Positions 1 through 16,529 of a stretch of 21,847 bases of DNA are shown in pieces. The DNA is from an uncultured virus (IMG/VR IMGVR_UViG_3300031834_000003) (Duplodnaviria; Heunggongvirae; Uroviricota; Caudoviricetes). The stretch lies in IMG/VR virus record IMGVR_UViG_3300031834_000003; one strand, written 5' to 3'. Below the pieces are notes generated by a model. It did no database searches and was not told where the DNA came from. It saw only the letters and a list, made by a program, of their open reading frames with translations. How positions within the stretch are numbered: position 1 is the stretch's first letter; the number at the start of each line of letters is the position of its first letter. Made by a program: the position numbers and the translations under genes.

Positions 1-54
1 GTCCTTGATAATGTCAAACAGAGGCCAGCGCCTCTTGAGGTCATCGATATTCAT
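1..54 (-). CDS. Start of a gene running off the window (MNIDDLKRRWPLFDIIKD), possibly a primase/CHC2 Zn-finger protein
   Basis: ATG at 54 with AAGGAG RBS upstream, directly after SSB. The product guess rests on 18 aa only. Confidence 0.4.
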   Translation of the reverse strand, partial: MNIDDLKRRWPLFDIIKD

Positions 55-78
55 GATTCTCCTTTGTTTTTGGGGAGT

Positions 79-104
79 GCCAGGTGGCTTTTACACCACC
101 TGGC
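79..104. terminator. Stem-loop downstream of ssb
   Basis: GCCAGGTGG-N8-CCACCTGGC inverted repeat, with no U-tract on the minus strand. Confidence 0.4.
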
Positions 105-111
105 TATGATA

Positions 112-528
112 CTAGAACGGTGGCGGTGCACCCTGCTCGAGTGCATCAGTCACTTCTTCGTGACCATTGCTTTCGGTCTCACCACGGCTGGAAAGGAACT
201 TAACAGTTGCGGCATTCACTTCAAATGATGCGCCAGCAGTGCCATCTTGCTTGGTCCAGATAGCAGGTCCACCAGTGACCTTATCGGGAGTTAGCCGACC
301 TTCGACCAGAACCTTGCTACCTCTCTTGAGGTATTGATTGCAAGCCTCTCCTTGCTTACCCCAAGCTGAGACACGGAACCAAATGGTTTCCTCAACTTGT
401 TGTCCATCCGACCCAGTGTATTTGCGATTGGTTGCAACGTTGAAATTCGTTACAGCCTGTCCACTGGGTAGATAGCGCATCTCGGGGTCTTTTCCGAGAT
501 TTCCTACAATGATAATGGTATGGTACAT
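112..528 (-). CDS. ssb: Single-stranded DNA-binding protein (138 aa; true start MYHTIIIVGNLG)
   Basis: OB-fold SSB motifs IVGNLGKDPEMRY, WFRVSAWGKQ and GSKVLVEGRL, an acidic tail ending PPPF, and an AAGGAG RBS at 538-543. The ORF-track extension to 678 overlaps a tRNA. Confidence 0.95.
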   Translation of the reverse strand: MYHTIIIVGNLGKDPEMRYLPSGQAVTNFNVATNRKYTGSDGQQVEETIWFRVSAWGKQGEACNQYLKRGSKVLVEGRLTPDKVTGGPAIWTKQDGTAGASFEVNAATVKFLSSRGETESNGHEEVTDALEQGAPPPF

Positions 529-620
529 TTTATTACTCTCCTTTACTAAGATATGTTTTAACTGGTGTAAATCACCAGCACAAACCAACCAAAAGAAACA
601 TCCCCCATTGTTATTTCTTG

Positions 621-693
621 GACAAGTGAAGAGATTTGAACTCTCATTATCTTGATTCACAGTCAAGCTCTCTGCCATTGAGATACACTTGTC
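621..693 (-). tRNA. tRNA-His(GUG)
   Basis: Minus strand folds as G-ACAAGTG TA TCTC AATGGCA GAGA G CTTGA CTGTGAA TCAAG ATAAT GAGAG TTCAAAT CTCTT CACTTGT-C. Full cloverleaf with GTG anticodon and the G-1:C73 His identity pair; CCA is not fully encoded. Confidence 0.92.
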
Positions 694-791
694 TACGTAC
701 TAGACCACAAATTCACACCCATTCTCCGGTTCTATGCTTGGACACTCTCAAATAGAGGTTCTATGAAATCCCGGAAACGGTCTACTCATTA

Positions 792-1019
792 TTAGAGTGG
801 AAATGGTACATCACTTGCCCACGCTATGAACGTGAGCAGAAGAACAAAGCCTGCTGTTGCCAGTAGGAACAGGAAGACTGTTCCTGCTAACATTTCTGAC
901 TTAATTGTCTTTTCGTAATCGATGAGCAGTTTGTTATTCACGTTACGTTCAATCATGAGACGTTTCTTTCCCAGTTCGTCTAAGCTTTTATAAAGCTCAT
1001 CACCCACATCAATGTTCAT
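792..1019 (-). CDS. Hypothetical protein with C-terminal transmembrane helix
   Basis: 75-aa ORF, AAGGAG RBS, hydrophobic C-terminal segment. Confidence 0.75.
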   Translation of the reverse strand: MNIDVGDELYKSLDELGKKRLMIERNVNNKLLIDYEKTIKSEMLAGTVFLFLLATAGFVLLLTFIAWASDVPFPL

Positions 1020-1038
1020 GTTTTCTCCTTAGTACTTA

Positions 1039-1515
1039 TTATTCGCTTGGGCATATTGGGTTACTTTCTCTCTATGGCTCGCTCTCTGTCATTGGTTTAC
1101 TTCAACGATTTGGCTCGCTCTTTCCATTTGGGTTACTCTCGACTTATGGCTCGCTTTTGATATTTGGGTTACTTCTTTGACATGGCTCGCTTTTCTGCAT
1201 TGTGTTACTTATGTATAGTGGCTCGCTTGAATAGACTGGGTTATTTCTTTCTCTTGGCTCGCTTTCCTTTTATGGTTTACTTGAATATATAGGCTCGCTT
1301 GCTTTCCCTGGTTTGCTTGAGGCGTGTGGCTCGCTTTCCTTTCGTGGGTTACTCAACCAAAATGGCTCGCTTATCAGTGATGGTTTACTTTCCTCATTTG
1401 GCTCGCTCATCTATCTTGGTTTACTTGCATAATTTGGCTCGCTACCCTTTTTTGGATTTCTCAATACTTGTGGCTCGCTCTCGTAAACTGGTTTTCTTCT
1501 ATTCGATGGCTGACC
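1039..1515 (-). ncRNA. TIGR-type array: 13 units of 36 nt (9-nt edge repeat, 9-nt spacer, 9-nt loop repeat, 9-nt spacer)
   Basis: Plus-strand TGGCTCGCT recurs every 36 nt from 1075 to 1471 (AGGCTCGCT at 1291; degenerate copies at 1039 and 1507). A second repeat, TGGKTTACT, sits exactly 18 nt out of phase. The intervening 9-mers are all different. Confidence 0.93.
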
Positions 1516-2188
1516 AGCCAAAATCTTCTGGTAGATATATATGCGTATGCCCTAAATGCTCATGAACATAAGGTGCACGAATTGGTAATCCTTCAATCTG
1601 GCGCCACACTAACCAAAGATGTGATAACCACATTTTTACCATTCGACCTGTAGCCGCACGATGTATATGCAATGGAGTCCAATCACGACCCTCGGTATAA
1701 TACTCTCGACTAGAGTCGTAAATAGCACGATATGGACTGTTGCATTTTAGGAAACTTCCTGCTATTAGAAAGCAGGTTGAGTGAAGGCGGGCATTATAAG
1801 GTAAAGGAACTCCTGAGGTTGGTTTATCTCGCTTACCATTTGCATCCATGCCATAGCCTGCATACTTCCATAGAGCGCTGATAGTATTTGCTCTGTGAAT
1901 ATCAACCACACAAACTACCTTAGCAGCCAGAATTCGTCCAATTCCTTTGACTTCAATCATGCGCTCAATTATTTCAATCCCCTTAGTTGCATTTGCAATG
2001 TCCACATCCAATTCGCTTTCTAACTCATCGAAACGAGCTAACCAGCGGTTCAGTATTTCTACTGTACCATTGGAAGGGACATCAACTCCTCGTGAGATTG
2101 CATCGAGGCGATTAGAAAATCCAATTCTGTTTTTCTGTATTGCTCTATCGCGTAGGTCCACTAGTGCTCTTAGAATGTTTTCGTCCAT
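1499..2188 (-). CDS. tasA: TIGR-associated Nop-domain protein without nuclease domain (TasA-like; IS110/IS116-type RNA-binding domain)
   Basis: N-terminal coiled coil (IQKNRIGFSNRL), then VKGIGRILAAKVV, ISALWKYAGYG, PYNARL, SPYRAIYD and HIHRAA..RMVKMWLSHLW. Only 229 aa, no RuvC/DEDD or HNH domain visible, and it abuts the 36-nt array. Confidence 0.88.
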   Translation of the reverse strand: MDENILRALVDLRDRAIQKNRIGFSNRLDAISRGVDVPSNGTVEILNRWLARFDELESELDVDIANATKGIEIIERMIEVKGIGRILAAKVVCVVDIHRANTISALWKYAGYGMDANGKRDKPTSGVPLPYNARLHSTCFLIAGSFLKCNSPYRAIYDSSREYYTEGRDWTPLHIHRAATGRMVKMWLSHLWLVWRQIEGLPIRAPYVHEHLGHTHIYLPEDFGWSAIE

Positions 2189-2208
2189 GTTTTCTCCTTA
2201 ATACTATT

Positions 2209-2421
2209 TTATACCTGTTTTTCCATATTCTCATCATCTTCCCCTAGGAAAAACTTAGTAAATTCTGAGCGCTGAGCTTTCATAATTACCCCATTGCCAT
2301 TACAAACATTACAGCCACCAGTGCCAGGATATTTAGGACCGGTGGCTGTACCTTTACATGCTGGGCAAATTACTTCAATGCTTCGAGGATTGCTAGAAGT
2401 ATCCATAGAGGTACTACGCAA
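2209..2421 (-). CDS. Small DnaJ-type Cys-rich Zn-finger protein (start uncertain)
   Basis: CPACKGT and CNVCNGNG (CxxCxGxG-like) motifs. Confidence 0.65.
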   Translation of the reverse strand: MRSTSMDTSSNPRSIEVICPACKGTATGPKYPGTGGCNVCNGNGVIMKAQRSEFTKFFLGEDDENMEKQV

Positions 2422-2492
2422 ATTCCAACGAAGACAAGTACGCCTAATAGCATCTCCCCTACTTTAGGGGTATCTTGAGGTTGTGGTCTCAT
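2370..2492 (-). CDS. 40-aa membrane peptide (not in ORF track)
   Basis: MRPQPQDTPKVGEMLLGVLVFVGICVVPLWILLAILEALK, with ATGA overlap with the upstream ORF. Confidence 0.6.
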   Translation of the reverse strand: MRPQPQDTPKVGEMLLGVLVFVGICVVPLWILLAILEALK

Positions 2493-2614
2493 TTCTTCTT
2501 CTCAATGAAACCAATCCCTGGAATTTCAACTCCATGTGGAGCTTTTGCCATTGCTATTGCAATCACTATAATGGATATTATTTCTATTCCAATACAGATA
2601 TAGCAAATAGTCAT
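2489..2614 (-). CDS. 41-aa membrane peptide (not in ORF track)
   Basis: MTICYICIGIEIISIIVIAIAMAKAPHGVEIPGIGFIEKKK, with ATGA overlaps at both ends. Confidence 0.65.
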   Translation of the reverse strand: MTICYICIGIEIISIIVIAIAMAKAPHGVEIPGIGFIEKKK

Positions 2615-3138
2615 TTCTTCTTCTCCATCCTCTTTTCATAGCCGGTGAGTTGGTGATAGTAACCAGCCTGTTCTCGATTCTTGTCTGACCCTGATTTCAA
2701 ATACTCGAGAGTGTTGGTTATCATCCATGCTACTGAGGCGGCAAAGCCCCAGTTGATGATGGTGTGACCGTAGTTTGGAAACAATGCTACTGTTAGTAAT
2801 AGAACTTCAGCTGCCCAGGCGCCTGTGCAAACAGGACATGATACTAATTCGCATACTGCCCCATAAATTCCTAGATTGCATTTTGCAGCTGTATAGTTTC
2901 CATAACCATTCTCGTGTTCTTTCTCGACTGTGAACCCTGTTCGAAATGGTTCACCAACCTTTAGAAAAGTAATACTGCAACCAATAAGACTGGCTGCAAA
3001 TGCTACCTTCATCAGGTCAAATTCAGTCAGAGTGTTGGGATATAACGAGGTAATGTAAACGAGAGTGAATAGAATAACTGGTGCTGCCAACAATCCTACA
3101 TATAGTCCCAACCTATTATCTTTCATAAAGAGCTTCAC
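2611..3138 (-). CDS. DUF1360-like membrane protein
   Basis: Multiple TM segments and a CELVSCPVCTGAW motif resembling the (G)ELLxCPxCxxxW signature. Confidence 0.65.
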   Translation of the reverse strand: MKLFMKDNRLGLYVGLLAAPVILFTLVYITSLYPNTLTEFDLMKVAFAASLIGCSITFLKVGEPFRTGFTVEKEHENGYGNYTAAKCNLGIYGAVCELVSCPVCTGAWAAEVLLLTVALFPNYGHTIINWGFAASVAWMITNTLEYLKSGSDKNREQAGYYHQLTGYEKRMEKKK

Positions 3139-3168
3139 TTTCTTGCCTCACTTTCCATTATATCAATT

Positions 3169-3190
3169 TAGGGGAGGTTTCCCTCCCCTA
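3169..3190 (-). terminator. GNRA-capped hairpin (terminator or processing site)
   Basis: TAGGGGAGG-GAAA-CCTCCCCTA on the minus strand just after the stop at 3195, with a weak U-tract. Confidence 0.55.
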
Positions 3191-3194
3191 TTTA

Positions 3195-3377
3195 TTAGAG
3201 GCTTACGAGATAGTTGTACCAGAATGCCAGCATAATCAGGTCAATTCCTACCCACATAATAATTACCAATATAGCTCGTAGTCTGTTATGTTTTGAGCAG
3301 GGTCTCAGCCATTCATTAGCGATTAGTGCACCTGAGAAAATAAGCCATATCAATGCACCTTTCTCAAAAGGTGTCAT
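3195..3377 (-). CDS. Small two-TM membrane protein
   Basis: 60 aa, two hydrophobic helices, ATGA-coupled to the upstream gene. Confidence 0.7.
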   Translation of the reverse strand: MTPFEKGALIWLIFSGALIANEWLRPCSKHNRLRAILVIIMWVGIDLIMLAFWYNYLVSL

Positions 3378-3604
3378 TTCGGTGCCCAGAAGACATTCTT
3401 CCAGTACTTGTGGACCTGGATGAGCGGATTGGGAACAGCCGTGAAGACTTCTTTCTCGGTTTTGAAGTCCTTGGATTTTGCAATCCAGACCCCATTGACT
3501 TCACGAACCAACTCAGCCCGAATGCCATTTCTACTGGCATTTCCAATTACGATTGTGTCTCCCACCTCAGGGATGGGAGCCTTGCTCGACTTGATGTATT
3601 TCAT
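3374..3604 (-). CDS. Hypothetical protein
   Basis: 76 aa, AGGAG RBS. Confidence 0.75.
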   Translation of the reverse strand: MKYIKSSKAPIPEVGDTIVIGNASRNGIRAELVREVNGVWIAKSKDFKTEKEVFTAVPNPLIQVHKYWKNVFWAPK

Positions 3605-3674
3605 GATAATCTCCTATTGAATGTGTGGCTACTTTCTAGTGCAAGAAATACTAAAAAGTAGCCACGGGAATAAT

Positions 3675-4007
3675 TTAGCTGCGCACTGCTTCGTAAATGC
3701 CGCGTGCAGCAACTTTATGCCAACAGATGTTGGCGGAAACGCCAGTAGGCGTAGTGCAATGTGGGCAATCACAAGATGTGTGCCCATTGACCTGCAACGT
3801 ATAGAAATGTGTTGGGTCCTCATGACTAGGAACCCGAAAGAACTCCAATGATTTGGAATCCATCTCAATTTCCGGCAAGTGCTGGATTGCTTTCTTCACT
3901 TGCTCTTGAGAAATCAGCGTATTTACATGCGGATTCTTTGCCAGAATTGCAATAGCAATGATTGATTTCATCACCATTGCTTTATTCAACTTTCGATACT
4001 GAGCCAT
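3675..4007 (-). CDS. SWIM zinc-finger protein
   Basis: CDCPH...CWHKVAA (CxC-Xn-CxH) and GGAGG RBS. Confidence 0.85.
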   Translation of the reverse strand: MAQYRKLNKAMVMKSIIAIAILAKNPHVNTLISQEQVKKAIQHLPEIEMDSKSLEFFRVPSHEDPTHFYTLQVNGHTSCDCPHCTTPTGVSANICWHKVAARGIYEAVRS

Positions 4008-4175
4008 TTAGCCTCCTTTCATATTAGTTTCAATTGTGCCTGCTAATAGCTTGATAGCACATTTAACTAGTGCTTGAGTGAATTCCAAAGGTGTAACTTC
4101 TGGTCTTCTCTCTTTGACATCGTTGTATAGATGAATAACATCACTAGCCAACGATTCTGATAAATCTCTATCCAT
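4008..4175 (-). CDS. 55-aa hypothetical protein (not in ORF track)
   Basis: MDRDLSESLASDVIHLYNDVKERRPEVTPLEF...; its stop abuts the next ATG (TAAATG). Confidence 0.65.
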   Translation of the reverse strand: MDRDLSESLASDVIHLYNDVKERRPEVTPLEFTQALVKCAIKLLAGTIETNMKGG

Positions 4176-4489
4176 TTTGTTTTCCCTTTCTTGAATAATA
4201 GCAAACTCATCCTGTCAGTCGCAATGACTCCGGCAATTCAGCCTACAGCTGGATGAGTTGAGATGATGTTTTATCTGGATGATTGCTCATAGAAACTCCG
4301 TAGATACTCCATAGTATCTTCGTAGTATCTTCGTAGTTATTTCAGAGTGCCTGAGTGAGTGGCATGTCCCCGAATCGGTAACCAGCCGAATGTGCCTCTC
4401 ACTCGCGTAGCTAAATAAAAATACTGGAATAACACCGTCGAGATTCTCAAAGGCTCGATATTTATCCTGCACATGTTATTCCAGTAAAA

Positions 4490-4595
4490 TGGGTGGATGG
4501 GATTTGAACCCATCTTGATGAGTGTTCCACGGCATACTCGTGTGAGATATGCACATGTTAGTTCATCTCTCTGGTGTAGCTATCACTACCACCCA
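4490..4595 (-). ncRNA. tRNA-like element (perfect acceptor stem and T-arm, aberrant middle)
   Basis: TGGGTGG/CCACCCA 7-bp stem and ATGGG-TTCAAAT-CCCAT T-arm; 106 nt with no canonical 7-nt anticodon loop. Confidence 0.7.
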
Positions 4596-4628
4596 ATACA
4601 AAACCAAACCAAAAGAAACACCCCCCAA

Positions 4629-4922
4629 TTATAGTTCGTTGCCCCATTCTTCTTTTACATCTCTCAAGTCTAACCATGCTTGAGTAACTTTCTCTTCCTT
4701 GACTTTTCTTTCTTCTTCAGGCAATAACCGTTTATCAAATTCAGGGCGGTTATCTACAATTTCCGGGAAATCAGGATGCACGATGTATTGTGCATGAGAT
4801 GGGCTGCATCTGATATGTCTTGGATAGTTCAGAGCAAATGTTGGGCAGTCCATCGCAATTGCTACGAGGATTGTTGCATCCTCGTTATGAGCTACTGGCT
4901 TACCACATTTATCGCAATTCAT
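4629..4922 (-). CDS. Hypothetical phage protein (Cys/His-containing)
   Basis: 97 aa, N-terminal CDKC and RHIRC motif. Confidence 0.75.
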   Translation of the reverse strand: MNCDKCGKPVAHNEDATILVAIAMDCPTFALNYPRHIRCSPSHAQYIVHPDFPEIVDNRPEFDKRLLPEEERKVKEEKVTQAWLDLRDVKEEWGNEL

Positions 4923-5004
4923 TTCTCATCTCACTTTTCTTGTGCAAGAAATATCGGTAGCAGGTAGTTTGAAAAGTACCTGTAGGTAACTACCTGCTAC
5001 CTGA

Positions 5005-5214
5005 TTAGTTTCGAGAACCTGATGCGGATACAATTGCCGCACCGTTATGTTTGAGAAAGTAGATTCTATCCAGCAACTGCTTTTTGAGCGTTGCTACTTC
5101 TTCTTTGAGTGCGGGAACAAGGGTATCATGTGCACTCTCTTCAGCTTGAGCATAACCATAAGCTGATGCTTTTGTTATTAGTGCATCTATCAATCTTTCA
5201 GCTTCGTCGTCCAT
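5005..5214 (-). CDS. Hypothetical protein
   Basis: 69 aa, GGAGG RBS. Confidence 0.75.
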   Translation of the reverse strand: MDDEAERLIDALITKASAYGYAQAEESAHDTLVPALKEEVATLKKQLLDRIYFLKHNGAAIVSASGSRN

Positions 5215-5227
5215 AATAACCTCCTGA

Positions 5228-5497
5228 TTAATATGGCAAATCTAAGGCAACTGCTAAAGCTGCCTTATCTAAGCCGAGCTCATTCATTGCTTCGAGATAT
5301 TCAGTGCGTGATAACTGCTTGGTTAATCCAATCATGCCATAGTAGATACCTACCTCGCAGTCTGGCTCTACATCGCAAAAGTATGCATAGCAAGGACGGT
5401 CATAGCCATGAGCAACAGTTACTCCACTTACAGGCATTGGAATGCCGAAGACTTTCACTGCCGCTTGTGCATCAACAAGACTGTAATAACGTGACAC
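5228..5497 (-). CDS. Hypothetical protein
   Basis: 89 aa, GTG start, AAGGAG RBS. Confidence 0.7.
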   Translation of the reverse strand: MSRYYSLVDAQAAVKVFGIPMPVSGVTVAHGYDRPCYAYFCDVEPDCEVGIYYGMIGLTKQLSRTEYLEAMNELGLDKAALAVALDLPY

Positions 5498-5521
5498 ATT
5501 GCTCCTTTTCTAGTGCTAGAA

Positions 5522-5896
5522 TTAATAGATTACTTTGGCTTTACGCATTGCATAGCCTCGCTGTACATAGTTCGTGTATAGCCTGAACCATGCCCATTGC
5601 AATCTAGCAAATGGGGTTATGCGATGCATATGATACATGTGCTTATGCTGCTTAGCTCTTGCCTTATTGATGCCTGATGTATAGAGTACTGTACCCTCAG
5701 GCATACCCCTTCTGACTAGCTCATCCTCTATAGCCATGTGCCTATATACATCATGCATTGATACACAATGCTCGAGTACATAGGCATAGCTACGCCATAA
5801 GCTAATCAACTCATGTACATCCATGATTAGCAAATCGCTGTTATCCATTAGCTTCTCTGCTATCATAGATAAGAGTAGGTGCTGTGCTAGATACAC
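5522..5896 (-). CDS. Hypothetical protein (true start probably internal, near 5848)
   Basis: ORF in the operon orientation; the annotated N-terminus overlaps the upstream gene. Confidence 0.55.
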   Translation of the reverse strand: MYLAQHLLLSMIAEKLMDNSDLLIMDVHELISLWRSYAYVLEHCVSMHDVYRHMAIEDELVRRGMPEGTVLYTSGINKARAKQHKHMYHMHRITPFARLQWAWFRLYTNYVQRGYAMRKAKVIY

Positions 5897-6032
5897 ATAC
5901 AGCTATAGTACCCTCATTAGTGTACTTACTACGTGCTTGAGCAAGTACTATAGCATCATTCATGTTGAATGCTCGTACTATCTGTATATCAAATTCACGT
6001 ACAACAACAAACCATAACTGTTTCATCATCAT
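5841..6032 (-). CDS. Small hypothetical protein, paralog of 6041-6259
   Basis: Aligns along its length with the neighbouring ORF. Confidence 0.75.
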   Translation of the reverse strand: MMMKQLWFVVVREFDIQIVRAFNMNDAIVLAQARSKYTNEGTIAVCVSSTAPTLIYDSREANG

Positions 6033-6040
6033 CCTCGCTG

Positions 6041-6259
6041 TTAGTCACAGCTATCTCTATTCCATATCAATTGAGGCGCTGTATCACATGCATATACTAG
6101 CTTAGTCTCACCATCATACTGACTATGAGCATCAGCTAGTATCTTAGCATCATCTACATTCGCTGCCTGCACTATGTGCACATCATGTTCCCGTATAACA
6201 ATGTAATATGTCATATCCTTACCATCCTCGCTGTCAATCATTACTAGATATACACCCAT
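6041..6259 (-). CDS. Small hypothetical protein, paralog of 5841-6032 (probable start MTYYIV at 6214)
   Basis: Shared VxRExDxxIVxAxNxxDAxxLAxAxSxY...TAPxLI pattern. Confidence 0.75.
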   Translation of the reverse strand: MGVYLVMIDSEDGKDMTYYIVIREHDVHIVQAANVDDAKILADAHSQYDGETKLVYACDTAPQLIWNRDSCD

Positions 6260-6466
6260 ATACGTACTCTACATCTGTACCACTTACTCTAGTATAACTA
6301 TACACTTATCATTCATTTCATTCATGTATAGCATATCAGCATAGTACAGACTGTATACAGTACCCTATGTAGTTAGTGTCACATATAGCTAAATATGCCT
6401 ATAAATGCTGATTTAGGGCACATATAGGCACATTTAGGGCTATATTTAGAGCTATTGAGGTGATTA

Positions 6467-6547
6467 TTACAGGCATTTCCACATGCAATAGCCTGCTAAT
6501 GCACCTGCTATAAGCAGTGCTAAGCCCAGTACATCTTGTGGATTCAT
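6467..6547 (-). CDS. 26-aa hydrophobic peptide (not in ORF track)
   Basis: MNPQDVLGLALLIAGALAGYCMWKCL, with AGGAG 9 nt upstream. Confidence 0.5.
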   Translation of the reverse strand: MNPQDVLGLALLIAGALAGYCMWKCL

Positions 6548-7085
6548 GCTTATTATCTCCTATGCAACGTATATTGATTGATTTGAGTGTTATGAGGTGT
6601 AAAACAGTGTTTTAGTGCTCACCCACCGGGACTAATGCAATAACAATTGCTTGATTACATGCATATTTCTTGCACAAGAATTAATAGACATAGGACTAGC
6701 CTGCGATGCACGCATTCATCCACTAGAGGCTAGTCCTTAGGCATGAGCTAGACAAGTACTCATGCATGGCACATTTATGTAGGCTGTGCCTTAGGATGCC
6801 TGTAGCCCTCATCCTCGTCCACCTGCACTCTTTCTTCTCATAGGACTGCACACTTAGTACTGTGCATGAGAGTGCGACCAGAGGTAGTTGCTCGCCCTAC
6901 CAACTATGCAACGTCATACAAGATGCACTACGTTGCCTATGCATCCTTGGAGCAGGCATGTTGGGCAATGAGCTAATCTCACCCACACCACCAACACACA
7001 CCCACTCACAAGAAGCACCCACCCATGTATGCATATAGCCTATGTATGGGTACATGCATAGCATTGCCTATTGTTGATTGAGATT

Positions 7086-7116
7086 AAAAAAAAGATGCCC
7101 TCCCTTGCGGGAGGGC
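7086..7116 (-). terminator. Rho-independent terminator
   Basis: GCCCTCCC-GCAA-GGGAGGGC then ATC and T8, right after the stop at 7124. Confidence 0.9.
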
Positions 7117-7123
7117 TATGATG

Positions 7124-7426
7124 CTAGAAGGGGAAGTCTTCGGAGGTGGCGAAGACCTGGCGTTTCGAGACAGTGACCGTGTAGTCGGTGTGGAAAGCCT
7201 TGATTGCTTTCTTATCGACTACTTCGGTGCGAGTCCACACCTTGACGGTGAGGTCCTGGGAGTAGACAGCCATGCGAGTGTCATCTGCAATGGAGATTTC
7301 GATGCAGTTGAATCGATTGCTTGCCCAGCGGCGACGGCTCTGCACTTCGGCTAACTTCTCTACGAGAGAGCAGTAAGTCTTGACGGAGCCGTTGGGAAGC
7401 TGATATTTAGTTACAATTCTAAACAT
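7124..7426 (-). CDS. Hypothetical early protein with SSB-like acidic tail (EDFPF)
   Basis: 100 aa, AAGGAGG RBS, own terminator. Confidence 0.8.
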   Translation of the reverse strand: MFRIVTKYQLPNGSVKTYCSLVEKLAEVQSRRRWASNRFNCIEISIADDTRMAVYSQDLTVKVWTRTEVVDKKAIKAFHTDYTVTVSKRQVFATSEDFPF

Positions 7427-7455
7427 GTGGAGACCCTCCTTCAGGGGGCTGTACT

Positions 7456-7485
7456 AATATAGGCTATCGAAAGACAGCCAATCAA
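7456..7485 (-). promoter_or_regulatory. Putative sigma70-type promoter
   Basis: TTGATT-N18-TATATT upstream of 7426. Confidence 0.4.
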
Positions 7486-7683
7486 GGGAAGCATCCCCCG
7501 TACTTTCGTGAGCTCATCAGGGGGGACCCCCTACTACCCTCGCACATGCAGAGTAGCGGCTCATGAGTAGGCTATGGGAGGGGGGGGGTGGGAAACTCTA
7601 TATATAGTCGTGCAGAGATACGTTACACCTTCTTAAATAGTGGGGGGATGAAATGGTGAGATAATATAGGAAAGGAGAGAGAC

Positions 7684-12559: not shown

Positions 12560-13042
12560 ATGCTGAATCCAACTGTAGTGTGGTACTTAATTGGTGCTCT
12601 GGCTATCCTCTGTGTTCTGTACGTTATCATGCCTATTATCCAGGCGCTGGTCAAAAACAAGGTTCTTCCCCCGCCTGATGAGATGCAGAAGACAATTGCT
12701 GAGCGCTTAGCCCAGCTTCAGGTCATCTTTGAGATAGCTATCCAGGTGGTTCGTTACCTCGAGCAAATGGGTAAGCTTAAGAGGCTCACGAATGAGGAAA
12801 AGAAGTCTCAGGCTAAGCTTCTCGTAAAGCAATTGGTAAGCGAACTGAAATTGGATTTACCCTTTGATGTAGATAAGCAGATTGATATTGCTATTGAGGC
12901 TGCGGTCAATCTGATGAATTCCGAGAAAGCAGTCGAGTTACCAATTCCGGTGGTCAACGTGACCCCGGAAATCAAAGAGGTGCGGGTATTCACTAGCGCA
13001 CCAATCCCCATTATTCCTGTTGAGGCAGAACCGAAAGGTTAA
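12560..13042 (+). CDS. Holin, LL-H-like family
   Basis: N-terminal TM helix, VVRYLEQ..., EEKKSQA and IDIAIEAAV pattern. Confidence 0.7.
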   Translation: MLNPTVVWYLIGALAILCVLYVIMPIIQALVKNKVLPPPDEMQKTIAERLAQLQVIFEIAIQVVRYLEQMGKLKRLTNEEKKSQAKLLVKQLVSELKLDLPFDVDKQIDIAIEAAVNLMNSEKAVELPIPVVNVTPEIKEVRVFTSAPIPIIPVEAEPKG

Positions 13043-13051
13043 GGAGATAAG

Positions 13052-13780
13052 ATGGACTCTGTAATGTGGTTGGCTATTGGGATTCCACTAGCATTGATGG
13101 CTGCGCTATTCATTCGAACATACCGTCGAGGGGGCAAGATTGGTCTAGAGCATATCTCTACCATGATTACGGTTTGTGTTCTTGGTGCTTTGGCTTTTGT
13201 ACTATATAAGGCTGAAGTAATCAACTGGATAACGACATATGAATCCGTAACCGCTATGGCTGGTACCACTATGGCTTATGGGACTAACTGGCCTAAGGTT
13301 TTAGCTGACCTAGTAGTAATTCTCGATATTGCGTCTCTTGTGGCAGTTTTTACTCCACAAAGCAAGTTTGCGGATGAACCAATCCTGGTCAAGACCATTG
13401 TATCCTTGTGGGCTATCTCTGTAATAGCTGATATGTTTGGGACATGGTACTTTGCTGCTCTCCAGCAACAGAGCGGTACGGTTCGAGCACCCGCAAGCAT
13501 TTCAGCATACACATGGATATTCCCACTCGCAATAACTATCCTGATTACTGGGGTACAGGTTGGAATACTCCGTGTCTTTGGTTTAGTGCTGGAAATGGCA
13601 ATAAATGGCAGGCTCACTACTTCATTACGTAAAGCCAGTTCTAATTATTTCCCACCTGTCAAGTCTAAGCCCATATCGTTTGACAGTTCTCCTGGTATGA
13701 GTGCAGCTGAACGGCATGGACACTCAAACGCAGACTTCTTGCAAAAGATGGGAAATAACAATCGAGAGAAGGTAGCTTGA
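13052..13780 (+). CDS. Multi-pass membrane protein
   Basis: About 5 hydrophobic segments, AAGGAG RBS. Confidence 0.75.
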   Translation: MDSVMWLAIGIPLALMAALFIRTYRRGGKIGLEHISTMITVCVLGALAFVLYKAEVINWITTYESVTAMAGTTMAYGTNWPKVLADLVVILDIASLVAVFTPQSKFADEPILVKTIVSLWAISVIADMFGTWYFAALQQQSGTVRAPASISAYTWIFPLAITILITGVQVGILRVFGLVLEMAINGRLTTSLRKASSNYFPPVKSKPISFDSSPGMSAAERHGHSNADFLQKMGNNNREKVA

Positions 13781-14064
13781 GAGTTATAGACAAGTCTGTT
13801 ATACATGATGTGCATCAGAGAGATGGTCAATGCCTTTATGGAAGTTGGAAAAGAGACCCTCACTGTATTGGCTATCTCTCGGCACATCATATACAGAAAC
13901 GAAGTCAGATAGGTCCAGATATTGAAAGTAATCTCATAACTCTCTGCATGTTTCATCACGAAATGGCTGAGAAGCATTTGATTACATCGGGAGAGCTTAG
14001 ACATATTCTGAGGGAGTTATATGGCTACTCATACACGGAAGAAGAATTGGGTCAAACATCATAA
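13777..14064 (+). CDS. HNH endonuclease
   Basis: RDGQC...C...AHHIQKRSQ.G.D..SNLITLCMFHH. Confidence 0.88.
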   Translation: MRVIDKSVIHDVHQRDGQCLYGSWKRDPHCIGYLSAHHIQKRSQIGPDIESNLITLCMFHHEMAEKHLITSGELRHILRELYGYSYTEEELGQTS

Positions 14065-15002: not shown

Positions 15003-16529
15003 ATGGGATATCTGACCGCAGGTGATAAACAGATGCTCCCTATTGCACTTAGGGAGAATAGATGCTTTCATATCGCTTGCGGTTGGTACTTTCGAGGCTG
15101 GCAGCCTCTTCCATATCAATATGCCATTCACCAAGCTGTTTCACCTAATCTAACTGAAATCTGGGGGGTTGGCGCCGGTAAGACAGTCCTAGAGACTGCT
15201 TCAATGGCAATCGACTGTATAACTACTCCCTGGTTCAGAGCATTGACTACATCTATAACTGCTAAGCAAGCCGAGCTATCCTATGATGTATTCATGCAAT
15301 GGATGCAAGGAAATCCACATCTTGAGCACCTCGTAATTGATATGAGGAAGAAACCCTGGCCGTGGGTTCAGTTTTACAACTATGCTGAGTGGGAGTGGCG
15401 TACATCAGGTTTTGGTGAGCAAGGCGCTAAGCTTATCCGTGGTGATGAGTTTGACCGTATCTTACGAGATGAGGCAGGCTTTGACCCAGTAGACGATTGT
15501 ATCAAGGTCTTACGTACTCGCTTGCGTGGAAAGCGTCCAGACGGTACACCTCGTATGGGAAGGCTAGACGTAGTATCCACTCCAACAGACGTACTATGGC
15601 TAAGGCAGCGCTTCGAGAGGGGTATCCCTGGACATCATACCTTTGTACTCAGCGAGAATAAGATACCGATGTATCTATCCTCGCAAGTCACTACCTATCA
15701 GAATACTCATCTTTCGAAACAAGATATCGAGGCGATGGAAGCTGAGTTGTCTGATGAAGAGATAGAGGTTGAGATGCTAGGTAATTGGCCTACTTATGGA
15801 TTAGCCAGGTTCCCTGCTACACATGTGAGAGCTTGTATTGATTACAATCTACTCAATACAGCTTACGAAAAGATTAGACCAGAATCAGGAAATCCTGCCG
15901 CAGGGTGGGATATACAGGAACATGCCAGACATGGTGTCATTAAATGGGAAATGCCTTATACCCCAGACGGTATCTATATTATGGCTGGAGACCCCGGTTC
16001 CGGTAACTTTCCAGAAAGGGGGAGTGCCCCTATCGGTGTTTTGGACATCTCACACAATCCATGGACCCTGGTGTATTTTGAATGGGTCTCTGGCACAGGT
16101 TCTATTACCCCCTTCCTCGAGAGATACGATTATGCTCGCAGAAAATACCGCCCAATGCACAAAGTACTTGATACCACTGGAGACCAAAAGTGGATGCAGG
16201 AAATTGCCTTCTATCGTCAGAGTATTGAGACAGATGGAATTAACTTTGGCGCTGATAAGAAGGCAATGATAAACGTTCTCCAGGATACCATTACCAGTCA
16301 TGACTTCAGAATGCCCTACATTCGGGGAATAGAGCGACAACTCACCTCGTATGACCCAGACCTCGATACCAAGAAGAATAAAATCCCCCAAGACATTGTA
16401 ATGATGATGGCAATGCTGATGTTTGTAGCCCAGTCAGCTACTGCTAATCAGATGACCAAAGAAACTCACGACCAGTACAATTACAATCGGCATAACAGAG
16501 CAAGCTACTCGAGACGGAGGCGAAGATGA
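15003..16529 (+). CDS. terL: Terminase large subunit
   Basis: Walker A GVGAGKT, Walker B IRGDEFDRILRDEA, VSTP coupling motif, TYQNTHL, and RNase H-like AGDPG...QDIVM. Confidence 0.92.
   Translation: MGYLTAGDKQMLPIALRENRCFHIACGWYFRGWQPLPYQYAIHQAVSPNLTEIWGVGAGKTVLETASMAIDCITTPWFRALTTSITAKQAELSYDVFMQWMQGNPHLEHLVIDMRKKPWPWVQFYNYAEWEWRTSGFGEQGAKLIRGDEFDRILRDEAGFDPVDDCIKVLRTRLRGKRPDGTPRMGRLDVVSTPTDVLWLRQRFERGIPGHHTFVLSENKIPMYLSSQVTTYQNTHLSKQDIEAMEAELSDEEIEVEMLGNWPTYGLARFPATHVRACIDYNLLNTAYEKIRPESGNPAAGWDIQEHARHGVIKWEMPYTPDGIYIMAGDPGSGNFPERGSAPIGVLDISHNPWTLVYFEWVSGTGSITPFLERYDYARRKYRPMHKVLDTTGDQKWMQEIAFYRQSIETDGINFGADKKAMINVLQDTITSHDFRMPYIRGIERQLTSYDPDLDTKKNKIPQDIVMMMAMLMFVAQSATANQMTKETHDQYNYNRHNRASYSRRRRR

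Follow-up and report, generated by a model that had tools for sequence, protein, structure and literature searches.

A 21,847-bp stretch of a novel sediment phage (class Caudoviricetes; IMG/VR record IMGVR_UViG_3300031834_000003), in the following called the window, carries a tasA gene with a TIGR array, and this module is bracketed by two direct copies of a 20-bp translation initiation region. The duplicated region is probably the mark of ordinary gene shuffling through short homologies at gene boundaries, by which the cassette would have been gained and could likewise be lost. The mechanism is of a known kind, and the cargo, a TasA-TIGR system, is topical. TIGR-Tas systems are newly described.

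A leader repeated at both ends of the tasA cassette

The 15-mer CATGTTTTCTCCTTA occurs exactly at positions 1017-1031 and 2186-2200, and no third exact copy was found in the window. The next-best match (13040-13054, minus strand) has 2 mismatches, the maximum allowed in the scan. Shuffled windows contained 0.07 matches on average, and none of 100 shuffles gave 3. Over the full 20-mers at 1017-1036 and 2186-2205, 19 of 20 bases are identical, the sole difference being G at 1032 and A at 2201. A repeat search extended the pair to 23 nt (1014-1036 and 2183-2205; 21/23, 91%) with a spacing of 1169 bp. The repeat had been proposed in a first, sequence-only reading of the DNA, and the scan of the window confirmed it with its 15 exact bases and its 19/20 agreement. 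That reading had also considered that the 15-mer might precede many genes; in the 21.8-kb window it has the two copies only.

Read on the minus strand, both copies have the form AGTA[C/T]TAAGGAGAAAAC-ATG, which is composed of AGTA[C/T], a 7-base Shine-Dalgarno sequence (TAAGGAG), a 5-base spacer (AAAAC) and the start codon ATG. Copy A (AGTATTAAGGAGAAAAC-ATG; 2186-2205, minus strand) represents the whole leader of tasA including its start codon and follows 3 nt after the stop codon of an upstream 70-aa zinc-ribbon open reading frame (ORF). Copy B (AGTACTAAGGAGAAAAC-ATG; 1017-1036, minus strand) provides the leader and start of a 75-aa orphan gene and is located 6 nt past the truncated edge repeat with which the array ends. 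The earlier assignment of the repeat to the ribosome-binding sites and starts of tasA and the gene behind the array is correct, as both copies end in the start codons of these ORFs. Due to the tight edges of 3 and 6 nt, the 1169 bp from copy to copy correspond exactly to leader, tasA and array. These edge positions also support the clean crossover considered earlier: recombination between the copies would leave the zinc-ribbon gene, one leader and the 75-aa gene intact. No promoter-like or terminator-like site was found within the repeat.

The stretch is present in 19 sediment sequencing runs, all of which are recorded as DNA. Both junctions are crossed by contigs from runs that are not flagged as a possible source of the window. 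The copy B junction is spanned by contigs of X10 (843-1048), X5 (956-1230) and X9 (726-1263), and the copy A junction by contigs of X10 (1824-2223) and X9 (1470-2283). For this reason, the arrangement of the repeats is regarded as real DNA and not as an assembly artefact.

Among the 990 pairs that can be formed from 45 start regions of the window, the one formed by tasA and the 75-aa gene ranks first in identity (20/23), with an exact in-register run of 15 nt. A run of this length was found in one further pair only, formed by the 40-aa and 41-aa ORFs further upstream, and the next-best run measures 9 nt. Both outlier pairs consist of neighbouring genes, and each of them brackets one unit. A position-specific model derived from the start regions of the window itself predicts 1.4e-4 pairs with at least 16/17 identities, and 16/17 was attained in none of 2000 column shuffles of the start regions. 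Chance is rejected as an explanation for the repeat, the bias that results from a shared Shine-Dalgarno sequence included.

The second junction repeat, AT[G/T]GAGAAGAAGAAATGA, has a length of 18 nt and agrees at 17/18 positions between 2489-2506 and 2611-2628 on the minus strand. It brackets the 41-aa ORF (2489-2614), and each copy contains the last codons of a gene (EKKK) and its stop codon with the overlapping start codon ATG of the following gene. The same bracket was found in a 99% variant contig (L092). In the available part of Pope et al. (2011, PMC3029335), a duplicated C-terminus is described for gene 68 of Island3, and the bracket of the 41-aa ORF likewise duplicates the end of the upstream gene.

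Gain and loss of genes at start-region repeats

Insertions and deletions (indels) of whole genes that are bounded by start-region repeats of 15-21 nt are common among the related phage contigs compared. The all-against-all comparison of the collected loci resulted in 11 rows of clean indels, some of which represent the same event in several pairs. In one locus (L014), a 144-aa gene that immediately follows a TIGR array is located between two 21-nt copies of a start region (AATAA[C/T]AAAAAGGTGAGCGAA; 6226-6246 and 6691-6711; 20/21), and in its relative of about 92% identity (L015) a single copy (4554-4574) joins the same flanks and represents the empty site. Among the SSB-related viral contigs L085-L089, insertions with lengths of 290-1378 bp have imperfect repeats of 15-19 nt at their ends, which consist of a Shine-Dalgarno site and a start/stop overlap, and the short allele contains one chimeric copy. 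For two indel events an overlap of 6-8 nt only was found. As indels bounded by start regions are common, the bracket around tasA can be regarded as the product of an ordinary mechanism with an interesting cargo.

Applied to the tasA locus, this mechanism would take the following course. One intergenic leader, present twice, flanks a 1169-bp cassette of tasA and a 13-unit array within a long minus-strand operon. Recombination would have taken place between incoming DNA carrying leader, tasA and array and the leader already present before the 75-aa gene, resulting in the order leader-cassette-leader. The two direct copies with their 15 identical bases could then serve as substrate for the loss of the cassette, insertion being the reverse path, and the same process would produce the whole-gene indels between related phages. 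By analogy with these indels, it is plausible that the locus arose, or can be resolved, by recombination between leaders.

Comparable cassettes are known from other phages. According to the available part of Arbiol et al. (2010, PMC2839356), the PeSL repeats of T4-type phages flank ORFans, with crossovers located between the Shine-Dalgarno site/ATG and the -10 box, and when neighbouring copies recombine, whole genes are lost or gained, a single chimeric copy is left behind, and deletion forms and mini-circles arise. The tasA locus resembles these cassettes in that a repeated regulatory sequence flanks accessory genes. A PeSL combines an early promoter, a terminator stem-loop and a Shine-Dalgarno sequence, as far as described there, and is present many times per genome, whereas the repeat described here consists of Shine-Dalgarno sequence, spacer and ATG. 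With neither promoter nor terminator in the repeat and two copies in 21.8 kb, its classification as a PeSL-type composite motif was rejected. A further parallel is given by LRRHood, in which, in the part of Pope et al. (2011, PMC3029335) considered, genes 43-46 form a 1.35-kb segment between 29-bp direct repeats, of which relatives have one copy only. The tasA module is likewise an accessory segment of 1-2 kb between short direct repeats at a gene boundary. The single-copy empty site of LRRHood is known from relatives, whereas no relative of the tasA locus was found in the collections searched; the pair L014/L015 provides such a site.

The occurrence of brackets was evaluated in a comparison set of 78 IMG/VR loci with a Tas alignment and two cultured phages. 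Of 81 loci subjected to the bracket test, 28 had no detected adjacent array and 5 were located at contig ends, so that 48 were testable. Brackets exceeding the null of their own locus were detected in three of them, namely Mvi-JY20 (37 nt), the window (17 nt) and L013 (15 nt). The 15-mer of L013 is probably due to chance, since it is GC-rich and not located at a start.

In the cultured Microcystis phage Mvi-JY20, the leader of the downstream gene is present in two perfect 37-bp copies (L001 2912-2948 and 4041-4077, corresponding to PP438412 21329-21365 and 22458-22494), which enclose tas, array and terminator; the unit measures 1129 bp. Within 107,975 bp the 37-mer has only these two copies, with up to 3 mismatches allowed, and it is absent from IMG/VR. 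The arrangement is similar to that of the window, as the leader of the next gene is repeated on both sides of a TasA-like gene (35% identity) and its downstream dual-repeat array. Unlike in the window, the repeat comprises 37 bp, is perfect and ends 1-5 nt short of the start codons, and a terminator lies behind the array. No empty site could be found for Mvi-JY20: there is no DNA relative among the phages, and the downstream protein matched two irrelevant loci. Two TTGAC motifs are visible by eye in the 37-mer, yet no promoter was called by a sigma-70 consensus scan, and its interpretation as a promoter was rejected. The window and Mvi-JY20 offer two concrete loci for a possible gain or loss of Tas modules by leader-to-leader recombination.

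Several results weigh against leader recombination as the origin of the bracket. For this locus, no empty site was found among phage records, IMG/VR and JGI contigs, and the genes on either side are orphans. A megablast search of positions 1-6000 against phages revealed no relative, and single queries with TasA, the DUF1360 protein and the 75-aa protein against IMG/VR revealed no relative with an empty site. The 9 loci found with the SSB query share nothing with the window beyond SSB, and a scan of the JGI metagenomes with the DUF1360 protein resulted in one 1540-bp contig, which is collinear with 2395-3934 and ends before the module. An excision joint (1036|2206) is absent from the contigs of X5, X7, X9 and X10 over positions 1-6000, in which rare variants are dropped. 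The swappable cassette proposed in the sequence-only reading is supported by analogy with other phages, and an empty site or excision junction at the locus itself did not emerge. Furthermore, Pfam and PHROG scans of the 21.8-kb window revealed no recombinase gene. A foreign composition of tasA was not seen (GC content 0.428, GC content at third codon positions 0.322; window means 0.454 +/- 0.041 and 0.441 +/- 0.090), so that any insertion would be old or derived from a similar phage.

The other Tas loci add to these objections. In 45 of the 48 testable loci the bracket is absent, and the idea that it is a general property of Tas systems was rejected. In phage Talia1610 (L098), a 2017-bp segment with three genes (2125-4141), one of which encodes a distant Tas-like protein (26% identity), is missing from the 95-98% identical Arthrobacter phages Racecar (L099 2421-2424) and Mimi. 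The breakpoints between Talia1610 and Racecar are formed by the stop codon and the ATG of the flanking genes with a 1-nt overlap only, and the indel was rejected as a repeat-mediated case. A search with TRF revealed no dual-repeat array in the Talia1610 segment. In favour of the proposed origin, a start region sharing at least 14 nt with a site within 3 kb was more frequent among tas genes (5 of 72) than among the other predicted genes (18 of 1152; odds ratio 4.7, Fisher p 0.009), in a test that included the window, favoured central tas genes with full flanks and was based on crude gene calls.

A further objection to the proposed origin comes from unrelated DNA. The exact 20-mer AGTA[C/T]TAAGGAGAAAACATG precedes open frames of at least 54 codons in 3 viral (L095-L097) and 11 bacterial (L100-L110) contigs that are unrelated to the window, with a chance expectation of about 2 in 596 Gb under uniform composition (own arithmetic). 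Selection for strong initiation can therefore reach this sequence, and both genes may have been selected independently, with no shared history, for the same very strong initiation region, which has a perfect 7-nt Shine-Dalgarno site and an A-rich 5-nt spacer. The motif TAAGGAGA, which stands before 5 gene starts in the window, and the composition of tasA, which is like that of its host phage, are in line with such a convergence. It is nevertheless considered unlikely. The other genes with TAAGGAGA have no likeness past the 8-mer, and both the start-region model and the column shuffles speak against it. By estimate, the 14 occurrences in those collections amount to a per-gene rate far too low for two in 45 genes. 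The position of both outlier pairs as neighbours also speaks against it. One of the frames following the 20-mer in the unrelated contigs resembles ribosomal protein S13 by eye.

The sequences upstream of the tasA genes closest to this one bear no relation to the leader described here, which is therefore a local leader that was not carried along with tasA. A comparison of 20 window proteins with 82 loci resulted in matches only for TasA and for four distant SSB proteins, and the flanking genes of the window were found in none of the other Tas loci. Judged from these matches, tasA and the array appear as a travelling unit, the only one shared with other phages besides the distant SSB matches.

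In three further loci, the tas leader is shared with that of another gene nearby and the module is not bracketed. The tas leader of L046 is a near-copy of that of a neighbouring gene (99-136 and 355-392; 36/38). In L053 16 nt are shared with a neighbouring gene (3228 and 4913), and in L062 21 nt, containing the palindrome CAGAACATGTTCTG, are shared with a gene at a distance of 2.4 kb (4974 and 7406).

A more far-reaching proposal is that TasA-TIGR modules are a class of cassettes which travel between unrelated phages as small fragments or circles with one copy of an intergenic leader, integrate at the initiation or promoter region of the recipient and duplicate it. In such a scheme an RNA-guided, DNA-bending TasA complex might aid the recombination (compare the speculation on integrases by Faure et al.), the 20-bp and 37-bp brackets would be fresh scars, and the excess of shared start regions among tas genes (5/72 versus 18/1152) would be the statistical trace of this process. 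This proposal is held to be improbable.

TasA, the TIGR array and its transcript

The tasA gene (1499-2188, minus strand) encodes a 229-aa solo Nop-domain TIGR-associated protein (phrog_4285, 5.5e-35). In phmmer searches against the PDB, its residues 76-221 aligned to residues 174-319 of a 331-aa TasR-type chain (9mty_A, E 1.7e-22) and its residues 6-226 to residues 71-308 of TasH (21kl_A, E 1.5e-19), in both cases over the non-nuclease parts only. The Pfam scan resulted in a weak match to PF02371 (E 0.021) and revealed neither an HNH domain nor PF01548. In total, 164 homologues of TasA were found, of which the best have 63-65% identity, a 99% self variant aside. The identity amounts to 35% for the protein of Mvi-JY20 and 29% for the locus of Salicola phage CGphi29.

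The dual-repeat array (1043-1515, minus strand) consists of 13 units of 36 nt in strict register, each composed of the edge repeat AGCGAGCCA, a 9-nt spacer A, the loop repeat AGTAACCCA and a 9-nt spacer B. Inside the 3′ end of tasA lies a degenerate first edge repeat, and the array closes with the truncated edge repeat AGCGA at 1047-1043. By its sequence, the locus is classified as a TIGR-Tas system of the TasA type with a dual-repeat array. It shares the solo Nop-domain Tas protein, the 36-nt dual-repeat array, the 9-nt spacers and the truncated edge repeats at both ends with the TIGR-TasA loci described in the available parts of the published reports (PMC12045711; 10.64898/2026.09.09.750476). 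Word searches in the available main text, supplements aside, of Faure et al. (2025, PMC12045711) and of the preprint by Xu et al. (2026, 10.64898/2026.09.09.750476) revealed no mention of cassette boundaries.

In run X9, one 36-nt unit of the array is lost (1255->1292), one is repeated (1399->1364), and 12 other letters are present near 1470-1493. Between strains the array units turn over, and tasA stays about 99% identical.

The end of the array differs from the published ones. TIGR arrays typically end in a rho-independent terminator, according to the available part of Faure et al. (2025, PMC12045711), whereas this array runs into the ribosome-binding site of the next gene: the following start codon lies only 27 nt behind its truncated final edge repeat (1043-1019), with no terminator, which also distinguishes it from the arrays of L001, L002 and L005. 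Of the typical array end, the truncated edge repeat is thus present and the terminator is not, the latter being a typical and not a defining feature. All genes from about position 7100 down to 1 are encoded on the minus strand, and no minus-strand terminator was found between 2975 and 1. Within 1-7500, 13 promoter-like matches were detected, fewer than the 18 expected from shuffles. As it has neither a terminator of its own nor a convincing promoter, the cassette is probably transcribed together with the rest of the operon.

This position in the operon may have a consequence for the gene behind the array. A TasA-dependent processing of tigRNAs is known (PMC12045711, in the part available). During such processing, the transcript would presumably be cut in the edge repeats, and the fragment beginning in the last edge repeat would carry copy B about 10 nt downstream, so that the 75-aa gene could be translated from the same strong ribosome-binding site as tasA. 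With no terminator behind the array and cutting in the edge repeats, copy B would supply the ribosome-binding site of the 75-aa gene and the operon would keep working. Lacking its own promoter and terminator, the TasA-TIGR unit would thereby be accommodated in a phage operon, the second ribosome-binding site offsetting the cutting of the transcript.

The identity of the two leaders might also be maintained by a shared control site, recognized by a translational repressor or an RNase, by which tasA and the genes downstream of the array would be regulated jointly; an origin by duplication is compatible with this. The identity includes the 5 nt preceding the Shine-Dalgarno site, a stretch on which ribosome binding alone makes few demands, and for the X9 strain, which is diverged by about 1%, no differences are listed at either copy. 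The palindrome-bearing 21-mer common to tas and a gene 2.4 kb away in L062 also fits a control site. On the other hand, the repeat occurs just twice in 21.8 kb, and Pfam and PHROG revealed no candidate regulator. No match to the repeat was found for the 13 tigRNA units; their 3 hits in the window all have 3 mismatches, which by estimate is about the chance level. Taken together, maintenance by a control site has a low probability, below that of convergence.

The sequence-only reading had raised the possibility of a target-site duplication, and the repeat indeed flanks the module exactly. An IS110-like or Tas-guided transposition into the operon could explain this, and a Nop-like RNA-binding domain is common to Tas proteins and the IS110 family, as far as the available sources describe them. 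Unlike in this family, the catalytic domain is absent here, and the repeat is a functional leader and no duplicated target. For IS110-family elements, typically no target duplication, or a very short one only, is known. TasA contains no DEDD/RuvC catalytic domain (no PF01548), and its alignment to the TasR-type chain covers residues 174-319 only. Moreover, the copies differ at 1 of 20 bases, the bracket length varies between loci (20 versus 37 bp), 45 of the 48 testable Tas loci are unbracketed, and like repeats bracket unrelated small genes. With a protein lacking the catalytic domain, brackets of differing length in 3 of 48 loci and unrelated genes bracketed in the same way, the proposed link to transposition is abandoned as extremely improbable, and recombination between leaders is retained as the preferred explanation.

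Flanking genes and further breakpoints

The window is identified as phage DNA by its genes for portal, terminase-like, holin and scaffold-like proteins, whereas most of the remaining genes are orphans. On the minus strand, the order is DUF1360 gene, 41-aa ORF, 40-aa ORF, zinc-ribbon ORF, copy A, tasA, array, copy B, 75-aa gene, tRNA-His and SSB. The gene of the DUF1360 protein is located at 2611-3138. The 70-aa CxxC zinc-ribbon ORF (2209-2421, minus strand) has a weak likeness to DnaJ_CXXCXGXG and Anti-TRAP, below the cut-offs. The 75-aa orphan gene (792-1019, minus strand), which starts from copy B, encodes a protein with a hydrophobic C-terminal half. No Pfam or PHROG match was found for this protein, and a search against 5.8 billion proteins revealed nothing beyond one 99% self variant. 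Downstream and in the same orientation follow tRNA-His (620-692) and SSB (112-531; PF00436, 1.3e-29). A small ORF for an HNH endonuclease (13777-14064; PF01844, E 1e-4) was detected upstream of the terminase-like gene (15003-16529).

Further differences from the window were noticed in contigs of X5, X9 and X10. A contig of X9 skips 170 bp (4020-4191), by which the 55-aa ORF at 4008-4175 is removed, with 8 other letters in between. The breakpoints fall into the Shine-Dalgarno parts of the neighbouring leaders, which share CCTTTC; the case is weak, as the shorter side measures 21 nt. Contigs of X5 and X9 are identical to the window over 341-616 and turn unlike at 616, beside the 3′ end of tRNA-His. 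A contig of X10 matching 793-894 diverges exactly at the stop codon of the 75-aa gene. The divergences at 616 and 793 look like mosaic breakpoints at gene ends.

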